Counted from the stretch's first letter, positions 18,803 through 38,157 are shown. The stretch: DNA of 64,000 bases from Spirochaetia bacterium (GCA_965203055.1 OZ241863.1:2432001-2496000); one strand, 5' to 3'. Notes: a model not told the origin generated them from the sequence alone. Program-made: numbers and translations.

Positions 18803-19180
18803 TCATGCAGAACTGACTTCTAACTCTTCCGGTGCCTTGCTGACCCACTCCGGTGCGTACAACAGTACGGGAGCGACGTTGTCGTCGGCCCATAAGGCTG
18901 AATCTTGGCCCCAGTAAAAAAAGTGAGCCGTGCGATTATCCTTCAGCGCTTTCTGTTTGGCGCTACCTTTTTTACTGTAGACTACCACGATGTCGCCTCG
19001 GTTTACCGGCTTGTAGGGAAACCAGAACGTATTTTCGACCTTGGTAGTTACCTGGTCGTCTTCAAACCCCGTGCAAATGAGCATGAAATCGCCGATGTCG
19101 GCATCGCGCAGGACTCGAAGCGCAAGCCGTTCGTACTCCAGGTTTCCCTTGTCTAGAACGAATTCGATCTCTACTCTCAC
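18803..19180 (-). CDS. Hypothetical beta-rich protein, lamin-tail-like
   Basis: GTG 19180 after GGAGAAG, overlapping the upstream stop; DKG.LE.ER, FWFP...GDIVVVYSKKG, HFFYWG. Confidence 0.65.
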   Translation of the reverse strand: MRVEIEFVLDKGNLEYERLALRVLRDADIGDFMLICTGFEDDQVTTKVENTFWFPYKPVNRGDIVVVYSKKGSAKQKALKDNRTAHFFYWGQDSALWADDNVAPVLLYAPEWVSKAPEELEVSSA

Positions 19181-19650: not shown

Positions 19651-19736
19651 GTGAATCAGTCTCCCTCATCCGTTACCGATTGTATCGGATGCCGGGGAGG
19701 CGTCAAGCGCGGGCGCGGTTGCGGCATGTTTGCCGA

Positions 19737-21401
19737 TCATCCGCCGAAGCCGAGCCGCTTCAGGTTGTCGGCGATGGCGGCGTCGAGTGAGCGCGCCTCT
19801 GCCTGCTGCTCGCGCCATAGGGCGGTGAGGCGCTTCATCTTCTCCGCGAACGGCTCGCCGTCGTCCGCCGGCGCTGCGGCGCCGACGTACCGGCCCGGCG
19901 TGAGCACGTAGCCGTGCCGGCGCACCTCCTCCCGCGCGGCGCTCTTGCAGAAGCCGGGCACGTCGGCGTATTCGCCCGCGCCCTCCTCTCCGCGCCACGC
20001 GTGATAGGTGTCGGCGATGCGGGCGATCTCCTCCGCGGTCAGTTCGCGGTGGGTGCGGTCGACCATGCGGCCGAGCTTGCGCGCGTCGATGAACAGCAGC
20101 TCCCCGCGCCGGTCGCGCAGCGCGCCGTTGCCGCGGGCGCGGGCCAGGAACCACAGGCAGGCCGGTATCTGCGTCGAGTAGAACAGTTGCCCCGGCAGCG
20201 CCACCATGCAGTCGATCAGGTCCGCCTCGAGCAGGCTCCGGCGAATGGCGCCTTCGCCGGCCTGGTTCGACGACATCGAGCCGTTGGCCAGCACGAACCC
20301 GGCCACGCCGGCCGGCGCCAGATGATGCACGATGTGCTGCGCCCACGCGAAGTTGGCGTTGCCCTTGGGCGGCGCGCCGTAGCGCCAGCGGCGGTCCTCG
20401 GCCAGCCGTTCGCCGCCCCAGTCGGAGACGTTGAACGGCGGATTGGCCAGGATGAAGTCCGCCTTCAGATCGGGGTGGCGGTCGTCGTGGAAGCTGTCGC
20501 CGTGCTCGATCCGCCCGTCGATGCCGCGGATCGCCAGGTTCATCTTGGCCAGCCGCCACGTCGTGTAATTCGACTCCTGGCCGTAGATCGAGATGTCGGT
20601 CGCGGCGCCGCGCGGCGCCTTGCCGCCGTTGCCATTGCCGGTGGCGTGCGCGTCGATGAACGCGACCGACTGCACGAACATGCCGGACGAGCCGCAGCAC
20701 GGGTCGTACACCCGCCCCCGGTAGGGCTCCAGCATCTCCACCAGCAGCTTGACGATGCAGCGCGGGGTGTAGAACTCCCCGCCCTTCTTGCCCTCGGCGC
20801 TCGCGAACTGCGACAGGAAATACTCGTAGACCCGGCCGAGCACGTCCTTGGAGCGGGCGTCTTCGTCGCCCACCTTGATGTTGCCGATCAGGTCGATGAG
20901 CTGGCCGAGGCGCTGCTGGTCGAAGCCGGGGCGGGCGTAATCCTTGGGCAGCACGTCCTTGAGCGCCGCGTTGTCACGCTCGATGCCGGCCATCGCGTCG
21001 TCGACCGCGCGCCCGATGGCAGGCTGCCGCGCCTGCGCCCGGAGGCGCTCCCAGCGCGCTTCGCGCGGCACCCAGAAGATGTTTTCGGCGCGGTACTCGT
21101 CGGGGTCCTCGGGGTCGGCCCCCTCGCCCCGCTCCGCTTCCAGGACGGCATGTCGCTCCTCGAAGGCGTCGGAGATGTACTTGAGGAAGATCAGCCCCAG
21201 CACGACGTGCTTGTACTCGGCGGCGTCCAGCGAGCCGCGCAGGGTGTCGGCCATGCGCCACAGCTCGGCCTCATGGCCGGTGGTGGCGCCGCTGGCGTCG
21301 GCGGTAGCGGCTGCCTTCCGCGCGGCGCCGGCGTTGCGCCTGTCCGGCCGCCCGCGCGCCCGTCCCTCCGAATCGCCGTCCCTGATGATGAGTCGTGGCA
21401 T
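19737..21401 (-). CDS. hsdM: Type I R-M methyltransferase subunit M
   Basis: [39 protein letters not shown]; exact start uncertain. Confidence 0.96.
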
Positions 21402-21501
21402 CCTCGCATCAACCTCGTCTCGGGTAGTATACGCGCTATCGGGCAGTATCGGGCGGTATTCGGCGGCCTTTGCGCCGGTACCCCGCAGGAGCAGGACGCA
21501 C

Positions 21502-22464
21502 GTGACGCTGGCACCTCGCAGAATACGCACCTCGATCGTCGGTTTGGTCGCCGCGGTACTCGCGCTACTGCTGTGGGCCGGTTCGAGTTCGCCGGCGCGG
21601 GCGCATGAACGTCAGGACGGCGTGCCGCGCACCGCCGTGGTATCCGCCTTCGCGCCGGAGCTGTCGATCCTCAAGGCGGAGCTGGACGGCGCCGTCACCC
21701 ATTCGCTGAAGGGCGTGGAGTTCTCCACCGGGACCCTGCAGGGGCGCCCGGTCGTATTGTTCCTGAGCGGCATCAGCGTCGTCAACGCGGCGATGACGAC
21801 CCAGCTCGCCCTGGACCACTTCACCATCGAGCGGATCGTGTTCTCCGGCATCGCCGGCGGCGTCGATCCCGCGCTCCACGTCGGCGACCTCGTGATCGCC
21901 GACCGATGGGGCCAGTATCTCGAACTGGTCTTTGCCCGCGAGGAGGAAGAGGGATGGCGCCCACCGCCGTTCTTCGACTACCCGTACCCCAACTACGGCA
22001 TGATGTTTCCGCGCTCCGTCACCGTGCAGGGCGTGGGCGCCGGTGCAGGCGCGGACGCGCCGGAGACCCGCTTCTGGTTCCCGGTCGACGCGGCGCTGCT
22101 GGCCGCCGCCGGGGAAGCCGCCGCGGCGGTGACGCTCGCTCGCTGTACGGCGGACGGCGCCTGCCTGCGGCGCGCGCCCAGGATCGTGGTCGGCGGCGCC
22201 GGCGTCTCCGGGAGCGCCTTCATCGACAACGCGGCGTTCCGGGAATACACGTTCGAGACCTTCGGCGCGCGCGTGCTGGACATGGAAAGCGCCGCGGTGG
22301 CGCACGTGGCCTACGCGAACGGCGTCCCATTCATCGCCATCCGCAGCCTGTCCGACCTGGCGGGCGGCGGCGAAGGCGAGAATCAGTTGGAGGTCTTTCT
22401 CGATCTCGCGGCCGGCAACGCGGCTGCGGTCGTCAAGGCGCTCCTGCGCGCGCTGCCCGCATAG
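21502..22464 (+). CDS. Secreted MTA/SAH nucleosidase (PNP_UDP_1) family protein
   Basis: AGGAG-GTG; signal peptide ending [37 protein letters not shown]. Confidence 0.88.
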
Positions 22465-22536: not shown

Positions 22537-22800
22537 ATGAGCACGAAACTCACCCTGAGCGTCAACGCTACGATCGTCCAACGGGCGAAGGAGTTGGCGA
22601 GACGGCGACGAACGAGCCTCTCTGGACTGGTCGAGGAGTATCTCCGATTTGCCAGCGCCGGCCTTGATGAGCGGCCCGCCGTCAGCAGCCGAGTTCAGGC
22701 GGTTGCCGAATCACTGCCGATGCCGCCGGACGCTACCTACGATCGCTTGCAGGAGCAGTACCTGCGGGAAAAGCTACTCGGTGCGGAAGATTCTACTTGA
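22537..22800 (+). CDS. DUF6364-like RHH antitoxin
   Basis: MSTKLTLSVNATIVQRAKELARRRRTSLSGLVEEYL. Confidence 0.85.
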   Translation: MSTKLTLSVNATIVQRAKELARRRRTSLSGLVEEYLRFASAGLDERPAVSSRVQAVAESLPMPPDATYDRLQEQYLREKLLGAEDST

Positions 22801-23245
22801 TTCCGACGTCATTCTGGATCTGTTCGTCTCGCGCGAACCGCATCACACGGTCGCCTTGCATTTCTTCTCGTGCATCGATCTCGAGCGAGACACCATCAGC
22901 GCAACGGCGTCGCCGGTGGCTATGGCCAACGTCGCCTACGTGTTGGCCAAGTTGAAGAATCAGGCATTTGCGGTGGGTAAACTGCGCGAACTCAGAACCA
23001 TGATCGGGGTGTCTCCCATCAACCAAACGGTCGTGGACCGTGCCCTGGCACGTCCGCATCGTGATTTCGAAGATGCCCTGCAACGAGAATGCGCGCTGGA
23101 GAATGGGATCGAGATTCTCGTGACTCGCAACACCCGCCACTATCCCAAGACCGACGTCGCTATCCTCTCACCGGCTGACTTCTTGCAGCTTCACGGCGCC
23201 GCGCTGGCGCTCATGGGCGGCGGCGGACCGGGCAGACCGTCCTGA
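22781..23245 (+). CDS. PIN-domain (VapC-like) toxin
   Basis: KILLDSDVILD, DFEDALQ, LVTRN. Confidence 0.88.
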   Translation: MRKILLDSDVILDLFVSREPHHTVALHFFSCIDLERDTISATASPVAMANVAYVLAKLKNQAFAVGKLRELRTMIGVSPINQTVVDRALARPHRDFEDALQRECALENGIEILVTRNTRHYPKTDVAILSPADFLQLHGAALALMGGGGPGRPS

Positions 23246-25216
23246 TCCGCCAGCCGAACCAGAAGCTGCTTGCCCTCCAGCGTTTGGCGCGCCCAATACA
23301 GGTTCTGGTATTGATCGTAGCCGCCCTCGCTCTCGCTCCCTGCCAGCCTTGCCGTGCCGGTCGCGGTGGTGCCGCCGGACGGCGCCGCGCCAAAGGTCAC
23401 GGTTGGGGCAGTCGTGTAGCCGCTCCCGCGGTCCGTAATATCCACCGACGCTACGCGCAACGCCGCAGTGCCGGCGGCCGTGGTGCCGGCCCCCGGCGCT
23501 GCCGAAAGGGTCACGGTCGGGGCAGTCGTGTAGCCGCTCCCACGGTTCATGACATTCACCGACGTTACGCGCAGCGCCGCGGTGCCGGCGGCCGTGGTGC
23601 CGCCGCCCGGCGCCGCGCCAAAGGTCACGGTTGGGGCAGTCGTGTAACCGCTCCCGCGGTCCGTGATATCCACCGACGTGACGCGCAGCGCCGCAGTGCC
23701 GGCAGCCGTGGTGCCGCCGCCCGGCGCCGCGCCAAAGGTCACGGTTGGGGCAGTCGTGTAACCGCTCCCACGGTTCGTGATCGTCACCGACGTGACGCCG
23801 GTTTGCAGCACTGCGGTGCCGGTGGCCGTGGCGCCGCCCGGCCCTGCTCCGAACGTCACGGTTGGGGCAGCAGTGTAGCCGCTCCCCGGGTTCGTGATCG
23901 TCACGTCCTCTACTCTGGTGGTCCGTAACGTCGCGGTGGCGCTCGCGCCGGAGCCTCCTCCTCCCGAAAACGACACGGTTGGGGCAGAGGCGTAGCCGCT
24001 TCCCCGGTTCACTACGGCTACGAGCGTCACTTGACTGCTAACTATCAACGCTGTTCCGGTTGCCCGGGTGCCTCCGGCGGCCTGCGGAGCGCTAAACGTT
24101 ACGGTTGGAGCAGACGTGTAGAAGTTCCCCGGGGCCGTGATCGTCACTGAACTTACTTCTGATCGCAGCGTTGCGGTGCCGGTCGCGGTGGTGCCGCCGG
24201 ACGGCGCTGCTCCGAACGTCACGGTGGGAGCGGACGTATAGCCGGCCCCCCGGTTCGTGATCGTCACTGACGTGACGAGGCCGGGCCCCACCGCGGTGCC
24301 GGTCGCCGCGGTGCCGCCGGACGGCGGCGCGCTGAACGTCACGCTGGGAACCGACGCGTAGCCGCTTCCCGCAGTCCCGACCGTCACCGCATCGACGGCG
24401 CCCGCCGCGGCCCCGATCGCCGTAGTCCCGCCGGACGGCGGCGCGCTAAACGTCACGGTAGGGACGGAAGTGTAGCCGCTTCCTGCGGTCCCGACCGTCA
24501 CCGCATCGACGGCGCCCGCCGCGGCGCCGGTCGCCGTAGTCCCGCCGGACGGCGGCGCGCTGAACGTCACGCTGGGAACCGACGCGTAGCCGCTTCCTGC
24601 GGTCCCGACCGTCACCGCGTCGACGGAGGCTACCGCGGTGCCGGTTGCCGTGGTGCCGCCGGACGGCGCCGCCTCGAACGTCACGCCGGGAACGGACGCG
24701 TAGCCGCTCCCCGGGTTCGCTATCGTGACCGCCTGAACCGTGCCGACGGCGCCCGGCTCGATCGTGTCGGAGCCCGACTGATCCGGGGCGGTGAGCACCA
24801 GTACCACTGCGCCCGCCCGGACGTCCGGGGTTACCGTCCACTCCGCGCCGGTGAGGTCGGACGCGAAGACCGGCTTGGCGCTCGTGCTCGTGAACGGCAA
24901 CGGGTGCCCGCCGATCGACACCTGCACCTTCTCGCCCTCGCCGCCGGTGATCCGCTCCCAGGCATACGGCGCGGAACGGTTGGACGTCGCGCTCAGCAGG
25001 TCCGCGCCGTCACCAAAGTGAGCCGCGCTGATCGTCCAGCTCTTCTCGGCCGGCTGGGCCGGCTGCGGGGTTGGCGGCGGCTCGCTCGGCGGCTTACCCC
25101 CCCCCCCCTTGGGCCGGGTCGGCGGGCGCGGCGGGCGGGCCCGCCGCCTGCGCGCACGCCATCAGCATGGCGATACCGGCGGCCAGCAACAGCGATACCA
25201 GCGACGCTCTGCCCAA
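23191..25216 (-). pseudogene. Repeat lipoprotein A with 12 GSGY repeats, frameshifted at a poly-G tract (phase-OFF or homopolymer error)
   Basis: AGGAGG-TTG MGRASLVSLLLAAGIAMLMAC; CAA-G12-TAA; downstream frame KPPSEPPP... is continuous with ORF 23191..24927. Confidence 0.85.
25097..25108 (-). repeat. Poly-G tract G12 in lipoprotein A
   Basis: 12 C on the + strand. Confidence 0.9.
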
Positions 25217-25331
25217 GATTATCCTCCTGCCGGGCGGTTGGTCCCAGGCGGCGGCACGGTAGCACGCGCTCCCCAAGCTGTCCATCCCCACGTCGCTCGC
25301 TTTCGCTCGCTCGCTCACTGCGCGCCGTCTC

Positions 25332-25360
25332 TTGACGTGGCAGACGTTTGTCTGTATGAT
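25332..25360 (+). promoter_or_regulatory. sigma70 promoter of lexA with CAGAC-N4-GTCTG operator
   Basis: TTGACG-17bp-TATGAT; palindrome at 25341-25354; ATG 6 nt after the -10. Confidence 0.85.
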
Positions 25361-25366
25361 GCTCCC

Positions 25367-26008
25367 ATGGCTCACGCTCCCCGGCCACGCTCCGGCGACC
25401 GCAAGCGGCGCATCTTCCTGTTCGTGCGCGACCGGATTCTCTCCGGGGCGCCGCCCACCGTGCGCGAGGTGCAGGCGCACTGCGGCTTCCGCGCCGTGCA
25501 GTCGGCCCGCGACTACCTGGAGGCGCTGGTGCGCGACGGGCTGCTGGACAAGGAACCGGGCAAGGCGCGCGGCTACCGGCTGCCGGCGCACTCCCCCTTC
25601 CCTACCGTCCTGGTCCCGCTCCTGGGACGGGTGCAGGCCGGCGCCCTCACCACCGCCAGCGAACACCCCGACGGCTATCTGGCGGTGCAGTCCGCCAGGG
25701 AACGCGACGAGCTGTTCGCCCTGCGGGTGCACGGCGAGAGCATGCGCGACGCCGCCATTCTGCCGGGCGACGTGGTGATCGTGCACCGGCAGGAAGACGC
25801 CCGCTCCGGGGATATCGTCGTCGCTCTGGTGGAGGAAGAGGCCACGGTGAAGCGGCTCAAGGTGCAGGCGGGGCGCGTCGAGCTGCATCCCGCCAACCCG
25901 GCGTTCGCTCCTATCGTCCCGGATCCCGCCCGGGTGCGCATCCTCGGCAAGGTGATCGAGGTGCGCCGCTACCTGGAAGGCGGCGCGCTGCTCGCACCCG
26001 AGCCATGA
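25367..26008 (+). CDS. lexA: LexA repressor of the mutagenesis cassette
   Basis: PPTVREV HTH, VPLLGRVQAG cleavage site, GESM serine, EATVK lysine. Confidence 0.93.
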   Translation: MAHAPRPRSGDRKRRIFLFVRDRILSGAPPTVREVQAHCGFRAVQSARDYLEALVRDGLLDKEPGKARGYRLPAHSPFPTVLVPLLGRVQAGALTTASEHPDGYLAVQSARERDELFALRVHGESMRDAAILPGDVVIVHRQEDARSGDIVVALVEEEATVKRLKVQAGRVELHPANPAFAPIVPDPARVRILGKVIEVRRYLEGGALLAPEP

Positions 26009-26655
26009 CCGGCGCGCCGCTGCGCCGCGGCCGGCACCTGGTAGTGCGCGCCGCCGCGCTGGCGCGCGAGCGCGGCCCGCAGCAAGAGGATCGCGACGCT
26101 GCCCGGTGGCGCCCCGCGGAGCTCGCCGGACGCCTGTGCGAGCTGGCCGCCGATGCCCATGGCGCGCTGCTGACCCTTGCCTGCGCCATGATCCGCGACT
26201 ATCAACGCGCCGCCGAACCGGTGGCCTGGATCACCACCACCCGCGACACCTTCTTTCCGCCGGACGCCGCCCGCGGCGGGATCGATCTGGCGGCGCTGCC
26301 GGTGGTTACCGTTCCCGATCGGCACGCCGCGGCGCGCGCCGCCGAGCGGCTGACCCGGAGCGGGGCCTTCGGACTGCTGGTGCTGGAGCTCGGCGCCCGC
26401 CTGGCCATCCCGGCGCCGTTCCTGGGCCGGCTGGCGCGCCTGGCGCGGCGCCACGATACCGCCCTCCTGTGCCTTACCACACCCGCCCCCGGCGCTACCC
26501 TCGGGTCGCTGATCGCGCTGCGCGGGCGCGCGTTTCGCGCCGCCGCGCCGCAGGCGGGCCGCCTGCGCTGCGGCATCCGCGTATCCAAGGACCGCCGGCG
26601 CGGCCCCGGCCGGACGCTGGCCGCCAGCTACCATGCCCCCCACGGCCTGTGTTGA
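26005..26655 (+). CDS. imuA: ImuA-like RecA homologue
   Basis: LAGRLCEL, FFPPDAARGGIDL, RSGAFGLLVLEL; lies between lexA and imuB. Confidence 0.8.
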   Translation: MTGAPLRRGRHLVVRAAALARERGPQQEDRDAARWRPAELAGRLCELAADAHGALLTLACAMIRDYQRAAEPVAWITTTRDTFFPPDAARGGIDLAALPVVTVPDRHAAARAAERLTRSGAFGLLVLELGARLAIPAPFLGRLARLARRHDTALLCLTTPAPGATLGSLIALRGRAFRAAAPQAGRLRCGIRVSKDRRRGPGRTLAASYHAPHGLC

Positions 26656-28153
26656 CGTCGCGGCGCTGGCGCTGCAGTTGCTGCTCCGGCGGCGCCCCGA
26701 CTGGCAACGCCGCCCCGCCGCGGTAGTCAGCGAAGACACCCCCCGCGGCGCCGTGGTGACCGTCAATCGGCCGGCGCGCGCCGCCGGGGTGCGCGCCGGG
26801 ATGCGGTACGCCGCGGCGCTCTCCCTGGCCCCCCGGCTGCAGGCGGCCATCGTCTCCGCCGAGGAAACCGCGGCGGGGGCGCGGCTCATCCGGGAGCGGC
26901 TGCTGTCGATCAGCCCGCGCGTCGAATGGGGCGGCGCCGGCTGGGCCGGGCAGGGGGTGTTCTGGATGGAGGCGGGAGGATTGCGCCGCCACTATCCTTC
27001 GCCTGAGGCGCTGGCGCGCGCCATTCAGCGCTGTCTGCGCGCGGCCCGGTTCTTCGCCGCGGTGGTTCTGGGACATACCCGGCTCGGCACCTCCCTCCTC
27101 GCCCGGGAGCTGGCGACTCCGCAAGCGGGCGCGCCGCGCCGGCCGCGGTACTGGCTGGTAATGCCCTCCGCGGCTGACGAACTGGCTGCTGCGCGGCAGG
27201 TTCCGCTGGCGCGGCTGCCCCTGGAACCGGAGGCGCTCGACCTGCTGGAAAAGCTGGCCCTGAGCACGGTAGACGACTTGCTCCGCATCTCCTGCGCCGA
27301 GCTGCTGCACCGCTTCGGCCCCCACGTGGCGGAGTTGCGGCGCGCCGCCGGCGCCGCGCCGGAGCTTCCGGTGCAGGGCTCGGCCCCGGCGGTCCCGCTC
27401 CTGCAGCGCAAGCGGCTGGCATACCCGGAAACCGATGCGGCGCGTCTGCAGCGCTCTGTGGAGGTACTGCTCGAGGCGTTGCTCCGCCGGCTGCGGCAGG
27501 AGGAACGCGCCGTAGCCGGGCTGGAGCTGCAACTCCGGTTGGAAGACGGCTCGTATCGGCGGGAACTGATCCGCCCCGCGGTCCCCACCCGCGAACGGCG
27601 CCGGCTGGCGGAGTTGCTGGCGCTGCGCCTGCCCACGCTGGAGCTGAGCGCCGGCGTCGAAGAGCTGGCCATGGAGGCGCGGGCCGCCCCGCTGCCGGCA
27701 GGTCAGAGCGAGCTGTTCCGCAGCAACCCGCGGCGCGATCTGGCGGCCGGGTCCGCGGCGCTGGCCGGCATCCGGGCCGAGTTCGGCAACGGGGCGGTGG
27801 CGCGCGCCGAGTTGGCCGCGGAGCATCTGCCGGAGGCGCAGTTCCGCTGGCAGCCGGTCGCCGAGTTGACGGCGCCCCGCCCCCGCTCCAGGCGGCAGGA
27901 GGCGGCGCCGCTGGTGCGGCGGATGCTGGCGCGACCGGTGGAGATCCCGGCGCCGCGCGTCGGCTCCGGGCCGCGGCCCGCGCACTACGGACCGTTCCTC
28001 ATCTCCGGCGGCTGGTGGCGCGCCGCGGAGGCCCGGGAAGGCGGCTGCGCCGACCGCGCCTACTACTTCCTGCGCTCCTCCGGCAACACCCTGGAGTGGG
28101 TCTACCACGACCGCCTGACCCGGCGCTGGTACCGCCAGGGATGGATCGAGTGA
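26633..28153 (+). CDS. imuB: ImuB, inactive Y-family polymerase
   Basis: ACVDV, ARAAGVRAGM, SPRVE, C-terminal GPFLISGGWW...RAYY...W. Confidence 0.88.
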   Translation: MPPTACVDVAALALQLLLRRRPDWQRRPAAVVSEDTPRGAVVTVNRPARAAGVRAGMRYAAALSLAPRLQAAIVSAEETAAGARLIRERLLSISPRVEWGGAGWAGQGVFWMEAGGLRRHYPSPEALARAIQRCLRAARFFAAVVLGHTRLGTSLLARELATPQAGAPRRPRYWLVMPSAADELAAARQVPLARLPLEPEALDLLEKLALSTVDDLLRISCAELLHRFGPHVAELRRAAGAAPELPVQGSAPAVPLLQRKRLAYPETDAARLQRSVEVLLEALLRRLRQEERAVAGLELQLRLEDGSYRRELIRPAVPTRERRRLAELLALRLPTLELSAGVEELAMEARAAPLPAGQSELFRSNPRRDLAAGSAALAGIRAEFGNGAVARAELAAEHLPEAQFRWQPVAELTAPRPRSRRQEAAPLVRRMLARPVEIPAPRVGSGPRPAHYGPFLISGGWWRAAEAREGGCADRAYYFLRSSGNTLEWVYHDRLTRRWYRQGWIE

Positions 28154-28200
28154 GCAAGCGCGCGGTTGCGCGACCGGCGCGGCCCGCGTACCGTAGCGCC

Positions 28201-29198
28201 ATGGCAACCACCAAGACTTCCAAGACCGCCACCGGGCCGCCCCGCCCGGACACGGCTGCCGCGCCGCCGGAGCCGGAGTTCCCCGGCTGCACGCCGGTCC
28301 ATCTGCCGGCGGACGAGCTCGAACGCAGCGACCAGCGGTTGGAGTATTGGGACGGCGCGACCCAAACCGCCTGGATCTGCGAACCGACCAGTCCCTACCA
28401 CGAGCGGCCCTCCGGCCGCCTGACCCGGCTCACCGAGCGGATCGCGCAGCTGCGCGGCGCGCCCATCGAAAGCTACGGCTCGATGGACCTGCGGCAGCAC
28501 GACGGGCCGCGCAGCATCATGCAGGCCGACGAGTCGGTGTACCTGCATCCGGGCAGCGCCCGCCTGCCGGGGCCGTCGGCGATGGTGATCGGCGTCGACG
28601 ACTATCCCGACGTAGTGCTGGAGGTGGACCACACCACCGACGGCGCGGCAAGCTGGGGTTGTACGAGTCGTGGGGGTTCCCGGAGGTATGGGTGGAGGTG
28701 CCGGACGAGACCGCGCCGAGCCGCCCGCGGGGCCGGCGGCCGGGGCTGACGATCCACCTGCTGGAGGCGGGCGCGTACCGGGCGGCGCCGGAGAGCCGGG
28801 CGTTTCCGGGGTGGACGGCGGAGGAGATTCACGCGGCGCTGAACGAACCGGCGCTGTCGGCGCAGACCAGCGCGGTGCTGGAACGGGTGGGGAGGACGCT
28901 CGGCGAGCGGGAGGGCACCGGGCCGGATCACGATCCGCTGCTGCGGTCGCAACGGCGCCGCGGGTACGAGCACGGCCACGAGCGCGGCCTGGAGCACGGG
29001 CGGGCGGAGGAACGCGCGCTGCTGTGCCGGCAGGCGGCGCGGAAGTTCGACGACGACACCGCGCAACGGCTCGCAGTGCTGCTGGAGCGGACCGCCGATC
29101 CTGACCGCCTGGCGCAGGCCGGCGACTGGATCATCGAGTGCGAGACCGGAGCCGAGCTCCTCGACCGGGTAGCAGGCAACACCGCGCGCCGGACCTGA
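28201..29198 (+). pseudogene. Uma2-family endonuclease, frameshifted near 28640
   Basis: MQADES...PDVVLEVDHTTD then RRGKLGLYESWGFPEVW in another frame. Confidence 0.8.
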
Positions 29199-29242
29199 CC
29201 TGACCCGCGGGGGGTCGGCGTTGGGATCGCGTGCCAACCGTC

Positions 29243-29272
29243 TTGCGTTATACAGACATTTGTCTGTATGCT
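29243..29272 (+). promoter_or_regulatory. dnaE2 promoter with perfect palindromic operator
   Basis: TTGCGT-18bp-TATGCT; ATACAGACA-TT-TGTCTGTAT at 29250-29269. Confidence 0.85.
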
Positions 29273-29279
29273 GGCTTGC

Positions 29280-32200
29280 ATGGGCGCAGACGGCAGGGCA
29301 GCGGCGGCCGGCGAGGCGGAGCGGGCGGGCGGGTACGTGCCGCTGTGGTGCAAGAGCAACTTCTCGTTTCTGGAGGGCGCCAGCCACCCGGAGGAACTGG
29401 TAGGGCGCTGCCGGGAGCTCGGCATCCCTGCCCTGGCGCTGGCGGACCGGGACGGCATCTACGGGATGGCGCGCGCCCACGTGGCGGCCGGCGGCGGCGG
29501 CCCGCGCCTGATCATCGGCGCCCAGCTTACGGTGGTCGATTCCCCGGAGGAGGACGCTACCGGGGCTGGCGGCGGGGAGACCGAGACGGTCGTGCTGCTG
29601 GTGCAGTGCCGAGAGGGCTACGGCAACCTCTGCCGGCTCATCTCGCGCGGGCGGCTGCGCAGTCCCAAGGGTCAGTGCCGGGTAGGCTGGGAGGAGGCGT
29701 GCTCCCACGCCGGCGGCCTGATCGCCCTCCGGCAGGGCCGCCGGCTGCTGGCCGGGAGCGCCGCGGCCGGCTGGCGGCGGCGCGCCGTCCAACTCCGGGA
29801 GGCGTTCTCCGACCGCCTCTACGGGCTGGTCACGCGCCACCGGCTGCCTGACGACGCCGCGGTCGAACGGCGCCTGACGGCGTTGAGCCGCCGCCTCGCC
29901 ATTCCTCTGGCCGCCGCCACCGAGGTGCTCTACCACCACCGCGACCGGCGCCGGCTGCAGGACGTGGTCACCTGCATCCGCGGCCGCACCACGCTGCACG
30001 CCGCCGGCACGCTGCTGCGCCCCAACGCCGAGCACGCCCTCAAGTCGCCGGCGGCGTTCGCCCGCCTGTTCGCGGACCGCCCCGAGCTGATCGCCGCCAC
30101 CCGCGAGATCGCCGCCCGCTGCGCCTTCTCGCTCGCCGAACTGCGCTACCGCTACCCTTCCGAACGGCTGCCCGCGGGCCGCACCTCAGCCCAATGGCTG
30201 CGCCACCTTGCCTTCGCCGGGGCGCGCCGGCGCTACCGCGGCGCCGTTCCCGCGGCCGTCGCCCGGCAACTGCGCGCCGAGCTGGCGGTGATCGAGGATC
30301 TCGACTATTGCGGCTACTTCCTGACCATGTACGAGGTCGTCCGCTTCTGCCGAACGCAGCGGATCCCGTGTCAGGGCCGCGGCTCGGCGGCCAACTCCGC
30401 GGTGTGCTACTGCCTGGGCATCACCGCCATCGACCCGGTGCGCATGGACCTGCTGTTCGAGCGCTTCCTGTCCCGCGAGCGCGCCGAACCGCCTGACATC
30501 GACCTGGACATCGGCCACCGCCGGCGGGAGGAGGCGATTCAGTTCATGTACCGGAAGTATGGCCGCGAGCACGCCGCCATGGTCGCCAACGTGGTGCGCT
30601 ACCGCCCCCGATCCGCCCTCCGCGAGGTCGGCAAGACCCTCGCCATGCAGGCGACCGCGCTGGACCGGGCGGCGCGGCTCGTCTCCTACCACCACAGCGA
30701 CTTCCCGGTGGCGGTAGAGGACGCCTTGGAGCAGGCCGGCCTCGACCCCGCCAGCCCGCGGCACCGCGCCCTCGCCGAGTTGACGGGCCAGCTCGTCGAC
30801 TTCCCGCGCCACCTGTCGATCCACCCCGGCGGCTTTCTGCTCGGCAGCGAGCCGGTCACCACCCTGGTCCCGATCGAGAACGCCGCCATGGAGGGGCGCA
30901 CCGTCATCCAGTGGGACAAGTATGACGTCGAGGCCCTGGGCCTGTTCAAGGTGGACCTGCTCGGACTCGGCGCCCTCACCCACCTGGATAACGGCTTCGA
31001 CCTGATCCGGCGCCACTACCGGCGCAGCTACACCATGGCCACGGTGCCGGCCGACGACCCGGCGGTGTACGAGATGATCAGCGCCGGCGACACCGTGGGC
31101 GTGTTCCAGATCGAGAGCCGGGCGCAGATGTCGATGCTGCCGCGCCTGCGCCCGCGCCGCTTCTACGACTTGGTGATTCAGGTCGCGATCGTGCGCCCCG
31201 GACCGATCACCGGCGGCATGGTCCACCCCTTCCTGCGGCGCCGCAACGGCGACGAGCCGGTGGAGTATCCCCACCCCGCGCTGCGCCCGGTGCTGGCCAA
31301 GACGCTGGGGGTGCCGCTGTTCCAGGAACAGGTGATGAAGCTGGCGGTGGTGGCCGCCGACTACACCCCCGGCGAGGCGGATCAACTGCGCCGCGACATG
31401 GCCGCGTGGCGCCGTTCCGGCGCCATCGAGAAGCATGCCGGGCGGCTGATCTCGCGCATGCGGGCCAAGGGCATCCCCGGCGAGTTCGCCGCGCGCGTGT
31501 TCGACCAGATCCGCGGCTTCGGGGAATACGGCTTCCCGGAGTCGCACGCCGCCAGCTTCGCCCTGCTGGCGTACCTCACGGCCTGGCTCAAGCGCCACTA
31601 CCACGACGCGTTCAGCGCGGCGCTGCTCAACGCCTGGCCGATGGGATTCTACGCGCCGGCCACCATCGTCGACGACGCCCGCCGCCACGGCGTGACGGTG
31701 CTGCCGGTGGACGTGACCCGCAGCGCCTGGGAGTGCACCCTGGAGCCGGCGCCGCCGGGCGCGGCCGGGCGGCGCCGGCGCTGGCGCTGCGCGATACGCA
31801 TGGGGCTGCGCTACGTGCAGGGGCTGTCGGAAGGGCGCGGCGCGGCGATCGCCGCAGCGCGCGCCAAGCGGCCCTTCGCCTCGGTGGCGGACCTGGTGGA
31901 ACGCCTGCCCGAGCTGCCGCGGGACGTTCTGCTCCGGCTGGCCGAGAGCGGCGCGCTCAACGCCCTGGAGCTGGAGCGGCCCGGCGGCCCGGCGCGGCCC
32001 GGCGACCGCCGCCGCGCCAGCCTGTGGCAGGTACTGGGCGCGGCGCGCCGCCGCGGGCGCGCCGCGCCGCTGGCCCCGGATCTCCCGCAGCCGGAGACCT
32101 CCTTCGCCCCCCTCAACCGCGCTGCCGCCATCGCCTGGGACTACACCGCCACCGGCCACAGCGCGCGCGGCCATCCGCTGGCGCCGTTGCGCCGCCGCCT

Positions 32201-32576
32201 CGCCGCCCGCGAGCTGCCCACCGCCCGGCAGGTCGCCGCCATGGAACATGGCCGGCAGGTCTCCTGCGCCGGCCTGGTAATCTGCCGCCAGCGGCCCGGC
32301 ACCGCCTCCGGCGTGGTGTTCATGACCCTCGAAGACGAGACCGGCTTCATCAACCTGGTGGTCTGGCCCAAGGTGTTCCAACGCTTCCGCAGCACCATCC
32401 TCACGGCCGCGTTCCTCGAGGTAAGCGGCGCGGTCCAGGCGCAGCACGGCGTGGCGCACGTGATCGCCGGACGGTTCCGGGCCCTGGAATGGGCCACCGG
32501 GCGGCCCCTGGAGCCCGGCGCCGGCCAGCCCGCCGCGCGCAACGCCCTGCCGTTGCGGAGCCACGACTTCCACTGA
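29280..32576 (+). CDS. dnaE2: Error-prone DNA polymerase DnaE2 (ImuC)
   Basis: [43 protein letters not shown]-terminal SHDFH. Confidence 0.97.
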
Positions 32577-32710
32577 CCAAGCCGGCCCGCGGCGCCGCGC
32601 AGCGGCCTGTTCCGTACCACCTCGCCGCGCACCGGAGGGAGGCCGTGCGCTTCCCGCCGGCGGCCAGCGCTACGCCCAGGCCGCGTCTGCGCTCCGGCAG
32701 GGGGCGGCCC

Positions 32711-33877
32711 TCAGCGCGGCAGTTCCCGACCCGGGGTGAGCTCGGTCAGGAACCGGTCCACCGGCAGGCAGCGGATGCCGTCCCGTTCCAGCGCCTCGTC
32801 TCCCCGGTACAGCAGGAGCGGCGCCGCCTCCGGGTAGTCGGCATGGAACGTCCTGATCCCCCGCAGATCGTGCGGCCGCAGCGAACGGCTGTTCTTCACC
32901 TCGATGGCATGGAACCCGGCCTCGCCGTAGAGCACGAAGTCGACCTCCGAGCCGCCCCGCGTGCGCCAGTAGTAGATGCCGCAATCGGCGTTGCCGTAGC
33001 CAACCCAGGCCTGCAGGTGCTGCAGGACCAGTCCTTCGAGCGCCGGCCCGGCCATCTCGGTGCGCGTATCGAGCGGCCCGGCGGGGCGCAACGAGCGGAA
33101 TATGCCGCAGTCGAAGAAGTAGAACTTGGCATGCGCGGCCAGCGAGCGCTTGGCGCGGCGCCGGAACACCGGCAGCCGGACGGCGATGAGCAGGTCCTCC
33201 AGGATGCCGAGATAGGACTCCACCGTATTGCGGCTGGCCACGCACTCGCGCGCCACCGCGGCGACGTTGAGCACCTGCCCGTGCGAGAACGACGCGGTCT
33301 CCAGGAAGCGGCTGAAGTCGTCGAGCCGCCGGACCAGCCCTTCCGCCTTCACCTCCTGTTGCAGGTACAGGTCGATGTACCCGCGCAGGGTGCGCTCCGG
33401 CGAGGCCGCGGTGACCACCAGCGGCACCATGCCGAGCGCCAGGCTCCGGTCCAGGTCGAACCGTGCACCCAATTCGGCGGCCATGAAGGGGTGCATCGTG
33501 CACCGCACCGCCCGGCCCGCCAGCAGATCGACCCCTTCGCGCCGCAGCTTCCGGGCGCTGGAGCCGGTCAGGACGAAGCGGAGCGACCGGTCGAGCTCCA
33601 TCTGCTGGTGCACCACCGGGAGGAGCTGCGGGACGCGCTGGACCTCGTCGATGACGATGGTCCCCCGCCCGGCGTTCGCCCGCACGAACTCCCGCAGGCG
33701 TTCCGGCCGGGCGGAGTAGTTGCGCTCGGCTTCCGCGTCCAGGAGGTCGATCCAGGCCGCATCCGGGTACGCCGCGCGCAGCCACGTCGACTTGCCGGTG
33801 CCGCGCGGGCCGAACAGGAAGTAGCTGCCTGCCGGATGGTCGAAGAATCTCAGTACTTCTGACACAATGGGACGCAA
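32711..33877 (-). CDS. AAA_14 / DUF4143 ATP-binding protein
   Basis: GPRGTGKST, IDEVQR, LTGSSARKL, KFYFFDCG, EVDF; start uncertain. Confidence 0.9.
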   Translation of the reverse strand: MRPIVSEVLRFFDHPAGSYFLFGPRGTGKSTWLRAAYPDAAWIDLLDAEAERNYSARPERLREFVRANAGRGTIVIDEVQRVPQLLPVVHQQMELDRSLRFVLTGSSARKLRREGVDLLAGRAVRCTMHPFMAAELGARFDLDRSLALGMVPLVVTAASPERTLRGYIDLYLQQEVKAEGLVRRLDDFSRFLETASFSHGQVLNVAAVARECVASRNTVESYLGILEDLLIAVRLPVFRRRAKRSLAAHAKFYFFDCGIFRSLRPAGPLDTRTEMAGPALEGLVLQHLQAWVGYGNADCGIYYWRTRGGSEVDFVLYGEAGFHAIEVKNSRSLRPHDLRGIRTFHADYPEAAPLLLYRGDEALERDGIRCLPVDRFLTELTPGRELPR

Positions 33878-33927
33878 TATATCAGTTAAACTGACGAAAC
33901 GCGCGTCAACAATACCTGGCCGACCAG

Positions 33928-33970
33928 GCGCATTTCCGAAATGTAGGTAGCGTCAGGCCGCTTGACGGCC
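33928..33970. repeat. Dispersed ~45-bp repeat, copy a (3' of intact HNH gene)
   Basis: GCGCATTTCCGAAATGTAGGTAGCGTCAGGCCGCTTGACGGCC; similar copies at 51222, 61222, 61300. Confidence 0.8.
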
Positions 33971-33981
33971 GAGCCCTATGA

Positions 33982-35337
33982 TCACCGGTCTACGGGCGCC
34001 TCACGATCCTCGCCGGGGCGGCCGAATCCGGCGCCGGCGTGGCGGTAGCGGTGATGGGCAGCGCACAGCAGGCGGAGATTGTTCGGCTCGGCGGCGCCGC
34101 CGCAGGCATACGGCACGACGTGATCGATCTGCAGCAGGTGTTGGGAGCCGCAGCGGCGCCCGCTGGTACGGTCCACGTAGCGGCAGCGGCCCCGGTCGCG
34201 CCGCCAGACCTCGCGCTTGACCGCTGCCGGGATGGCGCGGCCGGTCACGCCGCCCGCCTTCGCCGCCGAAGTTTCGGTCCGCGGCGGCGCAGCCGGCTTC
34301 GCGCAGGCCGTCGCAGCCTGCCGGCCGAGGCGCCGCGTCTTCGGCGCCGAAGTGGCGTCGGTCGCCGGCTTCGCTGCCGAAGTGTCCGGGCGGTCAGCGG
34401 CTTCCTCTCCCGGCTCCGCCGGCGCCTGAGCCGATACCTTCGCCGCCGAAGGAGCGGCGCGGTCCGCGCCGGCCTCCTGCTTCGCTGCCGGGGCAGCGCC
34501 GCGAGCCGAGGTCGCCTGCGTCTTCGCCGCCGAAGTTTGCTCGGCTCCTTTGGCCGGCGCGGCGCGCCGCCCACGCGGCGGCCGGGCCGGATCGTGGCGG
34601 TCGAGCCCTTCCCGCACCAGCCGCGCCATGAGCTGCCCCAACGTCATATGCGGATCGACGTGGGACAGGAGGCCCTGGAGCCGCTCCAAGCCGCGCCGGC
34701 ACTCATCGTCGATCACCGCCTTGAGTTCCCAGCACCCGCCGCCCAGGGGCCGCACCCGCTCCGCCGGCGCCGCCAGCTCCGGGTCCACCTCGGCCAGCAA
34801 CTGCATCACCTCCCGGCTGCTCTTGCCGGAGGCCTGCTCCACCAGCTCCCGCCGCGCCTCCGAGTCCAGCACCGGCGCCGGCTTCCGCTCCGCCGGCCGC
34901 GGCGGCGCCGCCCCGTCCTGCGACTGAGCGGCTGCCCCGCACCCGGCCCCGTCCGGCGCGCTACGCGCCGCCCGTTCCTTCTTGCGCTCCTGCCGGTCGA
35001 AGGCGTTCTGCAACTGCGCGGCCGCGTTCAGCGTCATCGTGCCATCCTGCAGGCGCTCGCGCACGCCCTCGACGTCCGCGCAGAGCCGCATCGCCTTGAT
35101 GCGCCGCCACGCCGCGGCGTCACTGTAACCCAGCTCGCGCACCGCGTAGTCGAACAGGCTCGAGAACCCGCGCCGCAGATACAGGCGACGCTTCTGAATC
35201 TCGCGCAGGTGGTCGATCACGACCACTTCGAGATGGTGTTCGATGCGGGAAAGTTCCTTGGTCCGCTCCAGCAGGCGGTCGTCTGAGAGGGCGGATACAG
35301 TAGTGGTGACGGCCTCGTCGGAAGCATGTCTGTTCAT
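33982..35337 (-). CDS. HNH endonuclease with N-terminal helical (DUF222-like) domain and TSAAK-repeat linker
   Basis: RGFSSLFDYAVRELGYSDAAAWRRI; RDRGRC...C...QIDHVVP...GG...NNLRLLCAAHH. Confidence 0.9.
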   Translation of the reverse strand: MNRHASDEAVTTTVSALSDDRLLERTKELSRIEHHLEVVVIDHLREIQKRRLYLRRGFSSLFDYAVRELGYSDAAAWRRIKAMRLCADVEGVRERLQDGTMTLNAAAQLQNAFDRQERKKERAARSAPDGAGCGAAAQSQDGAAPPRPAERKPAPVLDSEARRELVEQASGKSSREVMQLLAEVDPELAAPAERVRPLGGGCWELKAVIDDECRRGLERLQGLLSHVDPHMTLGQLMARLVREGLDRHDPARPPRGRRAAPAKGAEQTSAAKTQATSARGAAPAAKQEAGADRAAPSAAKVSAQAPAEPGEEAADRPDTSAAKPATDATSAPKTRRLGRQAATACAKPAAPPRTETSAAKAGGVTGRAIPAAVKREVWRRDRGRCRYVDRTSGRRCGSQHLLQIDHVVPYACGGAAEPNNLRLLCAAHHRYRHAGAGFGRPGEDREAPVDR

Positions 35338-35343
35338 AATATA

Positions 35344-35372
35344 AGTATAATCATGGAAACTACTTGAGTCAA
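35344..35372 (-). promoter_or_regulatory. Near-consensus leaderless promoter of the HNH gene
   Basis: TTGACT-17bp-TATACT-6nt-ATG. Confidence 0.85.
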
Positions 35373-35543
35373 GTTATTCGGCCCGGAGGATGGCACCTGC
35401 GGGCGTGACTCGGCGGCGCATTCCCAAGCGGCTGGACGCAGCAATACGCAGGTGGTCAGCGTGGGGAGCGCGTGCTATCATGGCGCGGTCCGGCTCGCGG
35501 CCAATCGCCAACGACGGCCGGGGGGTGATCGCTGGTATCGCTG

Positions 35544-37520
35544 TTGCTGGCCGCCGGAGTCGCCGCGCTAATGGCGTGCGCGCCCGCGGCGCGCCCCTCC
35601 GCGGCGCCCGCCGACCCGGCCCAAGGGGGGGGGGGGGGTAAGCCACCGAGCGAGCCGCCGCCGACTTCGCCGCCGCCGACTTCGCAGCCGCCCACCTCGC
35701 AGCCGGCCGAGCAGCGCTGGACGATCAGCGCGGCCGACTTTGGTGACAGCTACCGCGCGCACCTGTTGACCAACCGCTCCGCGCCCTATGCCTGGGAGCG
35801 GATCACCGCCGGCGGCGTGCGCGTTTCGATCGGCGGGCGCGAGCTGCCGTTCACGAGCACGCGAGCCAACCCGGTCTTCACCCCCGATCTCTCCGGCGCG
35901 GAGTGGACGGTTGCCGCCGAGGTGCGGGCGGGAGAAGTGGTGCTGGTGCTCACCGCCCCCGATCAGTCGGGCGCCGGCGACACGGTTGAATCGGTCACGA
36001 TCACCAACCCGGGGAGCGGCTACACGACAGACCCGACCGTGACCTTTTCGGCCCCGCCGTCCGGCGGCGCCACCGCAACCGGCGCCGCGGTAAGGTCCGG
36101 CAGCGTCGACTCCGTGACGATTACGACCCCAGGGAGCGGCTACCCCTCGGTTCCCACCGTGACCTTTTCGGCGCCGCCGTCCGGCGCCGCGGCAACCGGC
36201 GCCGCGGTGGGGACCCGGCGCGTCGATTCCGTGACGATTACGACCGCCGGGAGCGGCTACACGGCTGTTCCCGGCGTAACGTTCGGGGCGGCGCCGTCCG
36301 GCGGCGCCACGGCAACCGGCACCGCAGTGGGGACCCGGCGCGTCGATTCCGTGACGGTCGGGACCGCGGGAAGCGGCTACACGGCGGTCCCTGCCGTCAC
36401 GTTTTCGGGCGGAGGCGGCAGCGGCGCGGTCGCTACCGCGGTACGGCAAAGCGGCGTCGCGTCAGTGACGCTCACGAACCGCGGGACATTTTATCTCTCT
36501 GACCCAACCGTCACGTTCGGGGCGGCGCCGTCCGGCGGCGCCACGGCGACCGGCACCGCAACGCGGCGATCTGAAGTATTTACCGTGGCGGTGAACGTCG
36601 GGGGGAGCGGTTACACGTCTGCCCCCACCGTGACGATTGGCGCTCCGCCGCCCGGTGGCACCCAGGCAACCGCTACAGCGGCGATCAGTGGCGGTCAAGT
36701 GAGTTCCGTAACCGTGACGAACGGTGGGCGCGGCTACACGTCTAACCCTTCCGTCACGTTTTCGGGAGGAGGGGGCAGCGGCGCGGCCGGCAACGTGTCG
36801 ATTCGAGCAGACAGGTTGGATGCCGTGACGATCACGAACCCGGGGAGCGGCTACACGTCAGCCCCTTCCGTAACGTTTTCGGCGGCCCAGGGGACTGGTG
36901 TTACGGCAACCGGCACCGCGGTGCTGCAGAGCGGCGTCGCGTCGGTGAGGGTCACCAACGGCGGGAGCGGTTACACCTCCGCCCCTGCCGTGACCTTCGC
37001 GGCCGCGCCTGCCGGCGGCACCACCGCAACCGGCACCGCGGCGCTGCGCTACGGCGTCGCGTCGGTGGACGTCACGGACGGCGGGAGCGGCTACACCTCC
37101 GCCCCTACCGTGACCTTCGCGGCCGCGCCGAGCGGCGGCACCACGGCCGCCGGCACCGCGGTGCTGCGCTACGGCGTGGCGTCGGTGAACGTCACGAACG
37201 GCGGGAGCGGCTACACCTCCGCCCCTGCCGTGACCTTCGCGGCCGCGCCGAGTGGCGGCGCCACCGCCGCCGGCACCGCGGCGCTGCGCCTCAGCGCCGT
37301 CGCGTCGGTGAGGGTCACGAACGGCGGGAGCGGCTACACCTCCGCCCCCACCGTGACCTTTTCGGCCCCGGCCGGCGGTACCCGCGCGACCGGCACGGCC
37401 AACTTGGCAGAGAGCGGCTACGATCAATACCAGAACCTGTATTGGGCGCGCCAAACCCTGGATGGCAAGCAGCTTGTCGTTCAGCTCGCGGATCAGGCGC
37501 CGGCCCGTGATGACAGATAG
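35544..37520 (+). CDS. Repeat lipoprotein B with 12 GSGY repeats; poly-G in frame; start uncertain (TTG 35544 or CTG 35532)
   Basis: LMAC lipobox; CAA-G14-TAAG in frame; paralogue of 23191..25216. Confidence 0.85.
   Translation: MLAAGVAALMACAPAARPSAAPADPAQGGGGGKPPSEPPPTSPPPTSQPPTSQPAEQRWTISAADFGDSYRAHLLTNRSAPYAWERITAGGVRVSIGGRELPFTSTRANPVFTPDLSGAEWTVAAEVRAGEVVLVLTAPDQSGAGDTVESVTITNPGSGYTTDPTVTFSAPPSGGATATGAAVRSGSVDSVTITTPGSGYPSVPTVTFSAPPSGAAATGAAVGTRRVDSVTITTAGSGYTAVPGVTFGAAPSGGATATGTAVGTRRVDSVTVGTAGSGYTAVPAVTFSGGGGSGAVATAVRQSGVASVTLTNRGTFYLSDPTVTFGAAPSGGATATGTATRRSEVFTVAVNVGGSGYTSAPTVTIGAPPPGGTQATATAAISGGQVSSVTVTNGGRGYTSNPSVTFSGGGGSGAAGNVSIRADRLDAVTITNPGSGYTSAPSVTFSAAQGTGVTATGTAVLQSGVASVRVTNGGSGYTSAPAVTFAAAPAGGTTATGTAALRYGVASVDVTDGGSGYTSAPTVTFAAAPSGGTTAAGTAVLRYGVASVNVTNGGSGYTSAPAVTFAAAPSGGATAAGTAALRLSAVASVRVTNGGSGYTSAPTVTFSAPAGGTRATGTANLAESGYDQYQNLYWARQTLDGKQLVVQLADQAPARDDR
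35625..35638 (+). repeat. Poly-G tract G14 in lipoprotein B
   Basis: 14 consecutive G. Confidence 0.9.
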
Positions 37521-37548: not shown

Positions 37549-38157
37549 TCAGAAGTCGATGCCGCGCTGGGCCTTGATGCCGGCCTGGAACGGGTGCTTG
37601 ATCTCGACCATCTCGCTCACCAGGTCGGCGTACTCGATCAGTTCCGGCGGAGCGCCGCGCCCGGTCAGGACCACGTGGGTGCGGGCCGCCCGCGCCTCCA
37701 GGCACGCCACCACCGCCGCCGGCGGCAGATAATCGCAGCTCATCACCACGTTGATCTCGTCGAGCACCACGAGCTCGAAGCCGCCGCCGGCGATCAACTC
37801 CCGCGCCATGGCGAGCGCCGACCGCGCCGCGGCGCAGTCCGCCTCCCGGTCCTGCGTGTCCCAGGTGAACCCCTGCCCGGTCGTGCGCCATTCGAGCTGC
37901 TCCGGGAAGCGGCTGAAGAACCGGCGTTCGCCGGTCTTCCAGGCGCCCTTGATGAACTGCACGATCGCCACGCGCTGCCCCCAGCCGAGGGCGCGCGCGG
38001 CGACGCCGAAGGCGGCGCTCGACTTGCCCTTGCCGTTGCCGGTGTGCACCAGCACCAGCCCGCGCCGCGGATTCACGGCCCGCGCAACCTTGGCCCGCTG
38101 CTCCGCCTGCAGCGCGCGCATCCGCTCGGCGTGCTCGGCGTTCGCCTGATTCCCCAC
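37549..38157 (-). CDS. cobO: Cob(I)alamin adenosyltransferase CobO/BtuR
   Basis: VHTGNGKGKSSAAFG, VQFIKG, VVLDEI, LTGRGAP, KHPFQAGIKAQRGIDF. Confidence 0.93.
   Translation of the reverse strand: MGNQANAEHAERMRALQAEQRAKVARAVNPRRGLVLVHTGNGKGKSSAAFGVAARALGWGQRVAIVQFIKGAWKTGERRFFSRFPEQLEWRTTGQGFTWDTQDREADCAAARSALAMARELIAGGGFELVVLDEINVVMSCDYLPPAAVVACLEARAARTHVVLTGRGAPPELIEYADLVSEMVEIKHPFQAGIKAQRGIDF

Follow-up and report, generated by a model that had tools for sequence, protein, structure and literature searches.

Two inverted genes for repeat lipoproteins, here called copy A (23191..25216, minus strand) and copy B (35529..37520, plus strand), bracket a DNA-damage mutagenesis cassette, lexA-imuA-imuB-dnaE2, in a 64,000-nucleotide stretch from a Spirochaetia bacterium (GCA_965203055.1, OZ241863.1:2432001-2496000). 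This whole stretch, referred to as the window, is G000:C1:2432001-2496000, in which G000 denotes a single-contig genome of 4.56 Mb and 69% G+C. A first-pass annotation had read the arrangement as one contingency locus, in which stress-induced polymerase activity, and possibly inversion or conversion between the copies, switches surface variants. Comparison with related genomes shows instead that A and B are two of 32 dispersed paralogues. The reading that we consider likely is that of a genome-wide repertoire of lipoproteins, switched by slippage of their G or C tracts and exchanged between co-resident symbionts, beside which the cassette came to lie through genome shuffling.

Copy A encodes, in order, a 20-residue signal, the lipobox cysteine, a hinge that contains the G tract, a base domain, 12 repeats of about 39 amino acids and a conserved tail. 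It starts at a TTG (25216) behind an AGGAGG ribosome site, and not at 24927. The tract is a G12 (25097..25108 on the minus strand, C12 on the given strand) followed directly by a TAA (25096-25094), which leaves copy A out of frame (OFF) in the assembly; the predicted OFF product would be a lipopeptide stub of 20 residues. The tract and frame check agreed with the annotation on this point, including the computation that G11 or G14 would bring the gene into frame. A -10-like element common to many family members (25256..25264, minus strand) marks a putative promoter of copy A within the 151 bp that separate its TTG from the ATG (25367) of the divergently oriented lexA, a spacing previously given as 150 bp.

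Copy B has the LMAC lipobox, the hinge, 12 repeats and the tail in common with copy A, as the annotation had stated, and these elements were checked in both genes. Its G14 tract (35625..35638, plus strand, from a homopolymer scan) is in frame, again as described, but the gene is not simply ON. Comparison with the orthologue in a relative, G011, shows that 44 bp between two ATCG words are missing from copy B, and with them the ribosome site and the GTG start; the deletion scar, in which one ATCG is left, lies at 35526..35531 (plus strand), and an in-frame TGA stands immediately upstream. Apart from the missing start the body of the gene is intact. Copy B is probably silent or unexported, because a later TTG would yield a signal of only 11 residues without a charged start. 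The G011 orthologue keeps its start and has a G13 tract, which is out of frame.

The two genes belong to a family with 32 N-domain hits and 36 tail hits dispersed in G000, and 22 of the 32 members carry a tract of at least 8 bases. Tracts fall into two classes on the coding strand: in 11 members a G run lies in the coding hinge, and in another 11 a C run lies further upstream. Nine of the 11 hinge-tract members have their own ribosome site and start, copy B being an exception, and an organization of one expression site with silent cassettes is thus not seen in this class. The C-run class may also switch translation, because in several G010 members (seen but uncounted) a ribosome site and start codon precede the run. 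Hinge tracts are in frame in four of 11 cases in G000 and in one of eight in G011. The enrichment of long runs is pronounced: G000 contains 37 G/C runs of at least 10 bases, against about 0.1 extrapolated from runs of 6-8 bases, and 20 of the 37 lie within 450 nt of a family domain start. In the window, the tracts of A and B are the sole homopolymers of at least 8 bases. Many G runs of at least 10 bases are followed by TA, outside the family too, and the other 17 long runs are not at family genes.

Between G000 and G011 there are 20 reciprocal-best pairs of family members, and in 13 of them both genes carry a tract. None of the 13 pairs is equal in length; the difference is at least 2 bases in 12 pairs and at least 4 in eight, and some orthologous tracts differ by 8-11 bases. 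The flanks of the tract also differ in some pairs of the upstream class. Poly-G slippage as a predicted on/off switch, which the annotation had invoked, is well supported by these comparisons, because the tracts are concentrated at the family and no orthologous pair has kept the same length. Long G/C runs are error-prone in long-read consensus, and the recorded lengths, with the OFF state of copy A among them, might on this ground be assembly errors in genes that are fixed ON; the in-frame share of 5/19 is close to the one third that random error and switching alike would give. Such errors cannot account for the 37 long runs or for their concentration at one family, they fit poorly with orthologue differences of 8-11 bases, and the G011 orthologue at the site of copy A also has a G12. 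Moreover, contigs of one public run, X1, equal the cassette over 2917 and 3506 bases with zero differences, and the assembly is therefore accurate outside homopolymer runs. Homopolymer error as the general explanation is accordingly unlikely, and slippage remains the preferred one.

Copies A and B are predicted lipoproteins by the lipobox and signal read in their sequences. Neither has a match in Pfam or NCBIfam; the repeats match phage tail, baseplate and virion families. An AlphaFold2 model (mean pLDDT 86.7, pTM 0.42) is almost all beta, and no PDB entry matched it at an E value of 0.001 or better. A literature search of partial coverage, confined to main texts, found nothing on this lipoprotein family or on cross-genus sharing in sponge spirochaetes.

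Direct exchange between A and B was considered as a different source of variation. A RecA-dependent inversion between their 5' regions would swap the starts and would make the start-less copy B a silent cassette. The two genes are indeed inverted, a 108-nt stretch over signal and hinge is 90% alike, copy B has an intact body with its start missing, RecA is present in G000, and one opposite-strand joint (24325/37366) occurs in the runs X1 and X12. However, A and B are only 81% identical overall, with a longest perfect match of 43 nt, and copy B ranks only 8th of the 31 paralogues of copy A, the nearest of which is at 3.069 Mb, 612 kb away. The short side of the joint measures 32-36 letters and falls in repeats common to 30 paralogues. 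Sites at which A departs from its orthologues match B in 2/6 and 3/8 cases, no more than they match other members, and those at which B departs match A in 1/5, the 3' end of B being outside this test; the conversion that the annotation had suggested thus leaves no excess of shared derived sites. The ends of the segment have gene homology only, with no short conserved inverted recombination sites. No recombinase was found among 20 open reading frames (ORFs) scanned from 17.8 to 38.9 kb of the window, nor any resolvase match (PF00239) in the G000 genome; two tyrosine recombinases are encoded at a distance of about 62 kb, and an IS110 gene lies 19 kb from copy B. We regard the inversion as exceedingly unlikely, and independent slippage at each gene is retained as the source of switching.

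The family was found in five of 92 genomes of the order, and its bearers other than G000 are metagenome assemblies titled Spirochaetia. G000, G010, G011 and G012 each consist of one contig with 2-5% contamination, G011 being 96% complete. In a tree of RpoB from 25 genomes, G000 falls with G010 in one genus, and G011, G012 and G015 fall together in a second. Unexpectedly, the lipoprotein family, as judged from gene trees and identities, follows genome pairs across these genera. In a tree of 110 members, sequences pair across genera, with G010 and G012 on one side and G000, G011 and G015 on the other, apart from one G000/G011 pair on the first side. For 21 of the 32 G000 members the closest relative belongs to G011 (95-99.5% identical) and for 11 to G000 itself; for none does it belong to G010. 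Closest relatives are in G000 for 25 of 29 G011 members, in G012 for 12 of 22 G010 members, and in G010 for 14 of 23 G012 members (23 of 25 hits were fetched for G012). Multi-kilobase blocks of G000 and G011 are 94-99% identical, which suggested that G011 was a sister strain of G000; this was rejected on the RpoB tree and on the RpoB identity of the two genomes, 77.6%.

The near-identity is concentrated around the family. At an identity of 90% or more, G000 matches 39% of the 313 kb of G011 DNA centred on family members, as against 8.5% of a 400-kb G011 sample taken at 20 round positions; the rpoB locus is at 79%. One 9.7-kb G011 block is 97% identical to G000 and at most 81% to 22 other relatives, among the matches listed. 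The shared DNA also encodes glycosyltransferases, an ABC transporter, restriction-modification and defence-like functions and transposases (39 of 49 ORFs scanned). A stretch of about 50 kb, with genes for glycosyltransferases, radical-SAM proteins, ABC transporters and lipoproteins, is common to the two genera in several blocks at 96-98%; it lies at 2.92-2.98 Mb in G000 and at the loci L104, L084 and L106 in G011. To the right of copy B, cobO (37549..38134, minus strand, library match) forms with copy B one 2.6-kb block common to G011 at 96%. In a FastTree analysis of this one gene, the G011 cobO, which stands beside the copy B orthologue, clusters with those of G000 and G010 instead of with its own genus; the cobO/copy B block therefore moved from the G000 lineage. 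To the left of copy A, an N6/N4 DNA methylase gene and a type I hsdM gene (window 17835-21530) are 94-95% identical to G011.

Public sequencing runs that contain the stretch include sponge and marine metagenomes (20 runs listed, none of RNA), and contigs of four of the 20 (X1, X3, X5 and X12) were compared with it, none of which spans the whole stretch. X1, X3 and X5 contain contigs of the cassette alongside an allele of the neighbouring AAA-family ATPase gene in which five of six listed differences match G011, and in X1 the depth of this G011-like allele is 232 against 69-71. This fits, without proving, the co-residence of G000- and G011-type organisms. The route of exchange would probably be DNA uptake and recombination at shared repeats: ComEC is encoded in all five family genomes, although alone it is no proof of competence, and VirB4-type genes were found in none of the five. 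Chimeric assembly could in principle mimic transfer in both G000/G011 and G010/G012, since the genomes were assembled from metagenomes of organisms that appear to co-occur, and multicopy elements border many of the shared blocks. The blocks are, however, 92-99.5% and not 100% identical, they differ in flanks, repeat counts, tract lengths and gene-specific lesions, the four genomes are single contigs of low contamination, and the pattern is found in two genome pairs. Chimerism is thus quite unlikely, and the account preferred here is recent exchange between the genera.

The cassette that separates A and B begins with a second genomic copy of lexA (25367..26008, plus strand, Pfam/NCBIfam match); the other, at 113 kb of the genome, encodes a protein 38% identical to the cassette LexA. 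A motif check found in the cassette LexA the cleavage and catalytic motifs, which we take to serve the roles usually assigned to them. imuA (26005..26655, plus strand) has no library match and is named by position and conservation: 18 of the 20 loci from relatives keep it after lexA and before imuB. It is followed by imuB (26633..28153, plus strand), an IMS-family match below the DinB cut-offs, and by dnaE2/imuC (29268..32576, plus strand), a match to PRK05672 above cut-off. The annotated order lexA-imuA-imuB-dnaE2 between A and B thus stands, but three further genes identified by library matches lie in the interval. A Uma2-like multicopy gene (28195..29198, plus strand) between imuB and dnaE2 is split over two frames near 28640, where contigs from three runs have 4 extra bases. 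An AAA_14/DUF4143 ATPase gene (32711..33877, minus strand) has a 97.7% identical counterpart in G011, where no dnaE2 adjoins it. The third is an HNH-domain gene (33982..35337, minus strand) with 51 loci in G000, and together with the ATPase gene it accounts for the 3 kb between dnaE2 and copy B. The HNH-domain gene is also multicopy in G011; it borders several rearrangement points and may be a mobile element.

A palindrome, CAGAC-N4-GTCTG (25341..25354), lies between the TTGACG (-35) and TATGAT (-10) of the lexA promoter, 77 nt upstream of the -10-like element of copy A, and is a candidate operator of the second LexA; a second such palindrome (29253..29266) precedes dnaE2. The core AGAC-N4-GTCT precedes lexA or dnaE2 in 19 of 20 cassette loci, the 20th being cut by a contig end, and it is also present in four of the 12 best metagenome LexA loci. 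G010 and another genome, G004, likewise have an insertion of about 2 kb that separates imuB from dnaE2, and in both of them a separate box precedes dnaE2. recA is not among the best genome sites of the LexA-box profile in G000. A literature search of partial coverage returned no match for AGAC-N4-GTCT with LexA. DnaE2 occurs across the bacterial family, and its identity tracks RpoB identity there (compared by pairwise identities and not by a DnaE2 tree), which fits vertical descent with losses. The cassette may thus be described as a self-repressed mutagenesis operon, of predicted regulation and of mostly vertical inheritance.

A third AGAC-N4-GTCT box (G000 genome 3567165-3567178) stands in a lexA-like promoter, TTGACG-17-TATCAT. 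It heads an unrelated low-GC two-gene unit, of which the first gene is presumably HD phosphohydrolase-like, and the unit ends at a 97-bp remnant of a family tail. On the far side of copy A, a DUF6364 antitoxin-like gene and a PIN gene (22537..23245, plus strand, library matches) have been duplicated together with it: a 2.8-kb copy, 94.5% identical, lies at 3.067-3.070 Mb of the genome, and within the pair itself (3066763-3067463) identity reaches 99%. The PIN frame and the 3' end of copy A overlap by 55 bases.

The proposed local coupling of A and B to ImuABC was not borne out in relatives. In 20 relatives' cassette loci, of 14-20 kb each, there are no family members and no runs of at least 9 bases. 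The intact cassette lies 23 kb from the nearest family member in G010 and 84 kb in G012, and the synteny with imuABC that the annotation had named as a check is thus absent from both. G011 has 29 members, 18 of them with tracts (19 bases on average, as compared with 12.5 in G000), and no match to DnaE2, ImuB, this LexA or PF00817; the G011 sites that correspond to A and B are separated by about 163 kb and have no cassette. G015 has five members, none with a tract, and no match to DnaE2, ImuB or PF00817, and only lexA of the cassette is retained there. Cassette flanks are common within each genus and unique in G000, G010 and G012 (19 loci compared); the family-bearing genomes have therefore been shuffled. 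When a candidate LexA box was scored up to 450 nt upstream of 111 family members, copy A was the only one to have it, and there it lies inside the lexA promoter. SOS control of the family was rejected on this count. A scan of metagenome LexA sequences yielded 80 loci without a family match, the best of them 64% identical and too distant to test linkage. The placement of A and B beside the damage-polymerase operon looks accidental.

Several observations weigh against the reading of an independently switched repertoire with a cassette adjacent by shuffling. Tract lengths were compared between assemblies only, and the G011 tract is the longer one in 10 of 13 pairs, which may in part reflect sequencing or assembly bias. 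The family is present in only two of the genomes behind the 20 cassette loci. A random point would fall within 200 nt of a member with a probability of 0.25%, or 0.03% if a second member within 3 kb is also demanded, values that assume uniform placement and rest on post hoc criteria. In G010, about 3.2 kb separates a decayed lexA-imuB copy from a family member, and in G000 the third box has the family tail remnant 2 kb away. The junction between the promoter of A and lexA is bridged in X12, a run from another study, by 41 letters, and in X1 and X3 by fewer than 31. Eight of the 51 HNH copies have a member at a distance of 3 kb or less, against an expected 6%, which is a moderate enrichment only. 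This enrichment, with the traces of the cassette near members, would point to shared insertion hot spots, which explain part of the excess only.

The improbable adjacency under uniform placement, the two LexA-cassette traces 2-3.2 kb from family sequence and the recurrence of the junction in X12 are at the same time what favours the view that selection has made the pair and the cassette into a single contingency locus, with the switching of A and B driven by the neighbouring ImuABC. A polymerase acts genome-wide and gains no advantage from its position. In support of such driving, the DnaE2 of mycobacteria makes damage-induced -1 frameshifts in short runs (PMC9346131). The selected-locus explanation is nonetheless very unlikely in view of the distances in G010 and G012, the G011 sites without a cassette, a box found near none of the other 110 members, and a copy B without a start. 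A related and compatible proposal, that under DNA damage ImuABC raises slippage in trans at all tracts, needs no adjacency and is plausible as such. ImuB is the sole PF00817 match in G000, G010 and G012, and the same source assigns DnaE2 a contribution to UV-induced -1 frameshifts in 4-base runs (PMC9346131). On the other hand, the published test used runs of 4-5 bases and reports an activity not confined to runs (PMC9346131), MutS was found in all five family genomes, and mean tract length shows no trend with dnaE2 (12.5, 16.3 and 19.2 in genomes with it, 19.1 in G011 without it). An effect in trans is less likely than not, and would supplement ordinary slippage in a dispersed repertoire, which we continue to prefer.

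Some further observations concern cassette remains, population contigs and mobile genes. The decayed second lexA-imuA-imuB copy of G010 (C1 3195090-3196353) has internal deletions, and fragments of imuB and dnaE2 are found at 2.037-2.039 Mb in G012. Contigs of X5 show a 1-base loss at 25097 that is not assignable to copy A as opposed to a paralogue (30 paralogues share the stretch). A closer association of the HNH-domain gene with the family, within 600 nt, was rejected; it was seen for three of 32 members, no more than in rotation controls.

In G012, all five copies of an IS110 element (1.62 kb, 99.9% identical) sit within poly-C runs, flanked by C5-C10 to their left and by C10-C33 to their right. 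They lie at 709.3, 985-987, 1899.0, 3366.1-3367.8 and 3788.3 kb of C1 (L308-L312), and four of the five are in family lipoprotein tracts, where they cut the genes from their upstream start region. A G010 relative (89%) is preceded on its left by C6. G000 has a single IS110-type transposase match (window 56543-56989), for which blastn gave no match to the G012 element and next to which there is no long tract. If an IS110 targets contingency tracts, it could serve as a further on/off layer.

Taken together, these data suggest the following mechanism. A and B belong to a set of about 32 dispersed genes for predicted lipid-anchored, all-beta repeat proteins, most of which have a long G/C run towards the 5' end. 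The length of the run would change through ordinary replication slippage, which would bring the mature protein into or out of frame with its signal peptide, each gene switching independently, as tract enrichment, frame logic and length differences between genomes indicate; switching within a population and display at the surface are presumed. The cassette would have come to lie beside copy A through genome shuffling, with multicopy elements gathering near family genes; the loss of synteny is observed, and shuffling is its presumed cause. The repertoire, with neighbouring glycosyltransferase and restriction or defence genes, would in recent times have passed between two genera, independently in two genome pairs and most probably among symbionts of a single sponge host, given the near-identity of these genes against the divergence of the core. 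More tentatively, co-resident genera might keep a common, host-specific, phase-variable coat by repeatedly passing genes to one another, with the tract-targeting IS110 as a second switch in one lineage; we would not put this extension at even odds.

That the mutasome is not wired to two flanking switches removes a tempting wrong lead. Contingency loci have mostly been studied in pathogens under immune selection, in a single species each. Here, 22-32 switchable lipoprotein genes appear nearly unchanged between genera in two genome pairs, a testable case in which the host or its phages may select a common surface on unrelated symbionts. A practical consequence is that near-identical accessory DNA in sponge metagenomes need not signal the same species.

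Some features of this system recall known ones. In Pseudomonas putida, lexA2-imuA-imuB-imuC likewise combines a second lexA with imuABC, which it would regulate by inference (PMC5261740). The spirochaete cassette differs in its predicted operator, AGAC-N4-GTCT, a second copy of which stands before dnaE2 after a gene insertion. As for exchange, near-identical DNA common to co-resident species has reportedly been found in gut Bacteroidales, where large conjugative elements are said to carry it. The likeness is that of near-identical DNA crossing species within one host; here dozens of dispersed blocks are involved, they include a switchable surface family, and VirB4-type genes are absent from the five family genomes. 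The Vlp, Vsa and Vaa proteins of Mycoplasma are lipid-anchored, size-variable repeat proteins with on/off switching, to which the present family is related by analogy only: it has no homology to them by Pfam or NCBIfam and has repeats resembling phage tail, baseplate and virion proteins, and its genes are dispersed and without an invertase, whereas the Vsa system has one. A parallel within the spirochaetes is Treponema pallidum, in which tpr and other outer-membrane genes form a paralogous envelope family whose expression is set by variable poly-G runs (PMC7864442). No sequence family in common was found, and there is no known immune host here. In T. pallidum the variable runs lie in promoters and act on transcription (PMC7864442), whereas in one subfamily of the present lipoproteins the run is placed in the coding hinge behind the lipobox.

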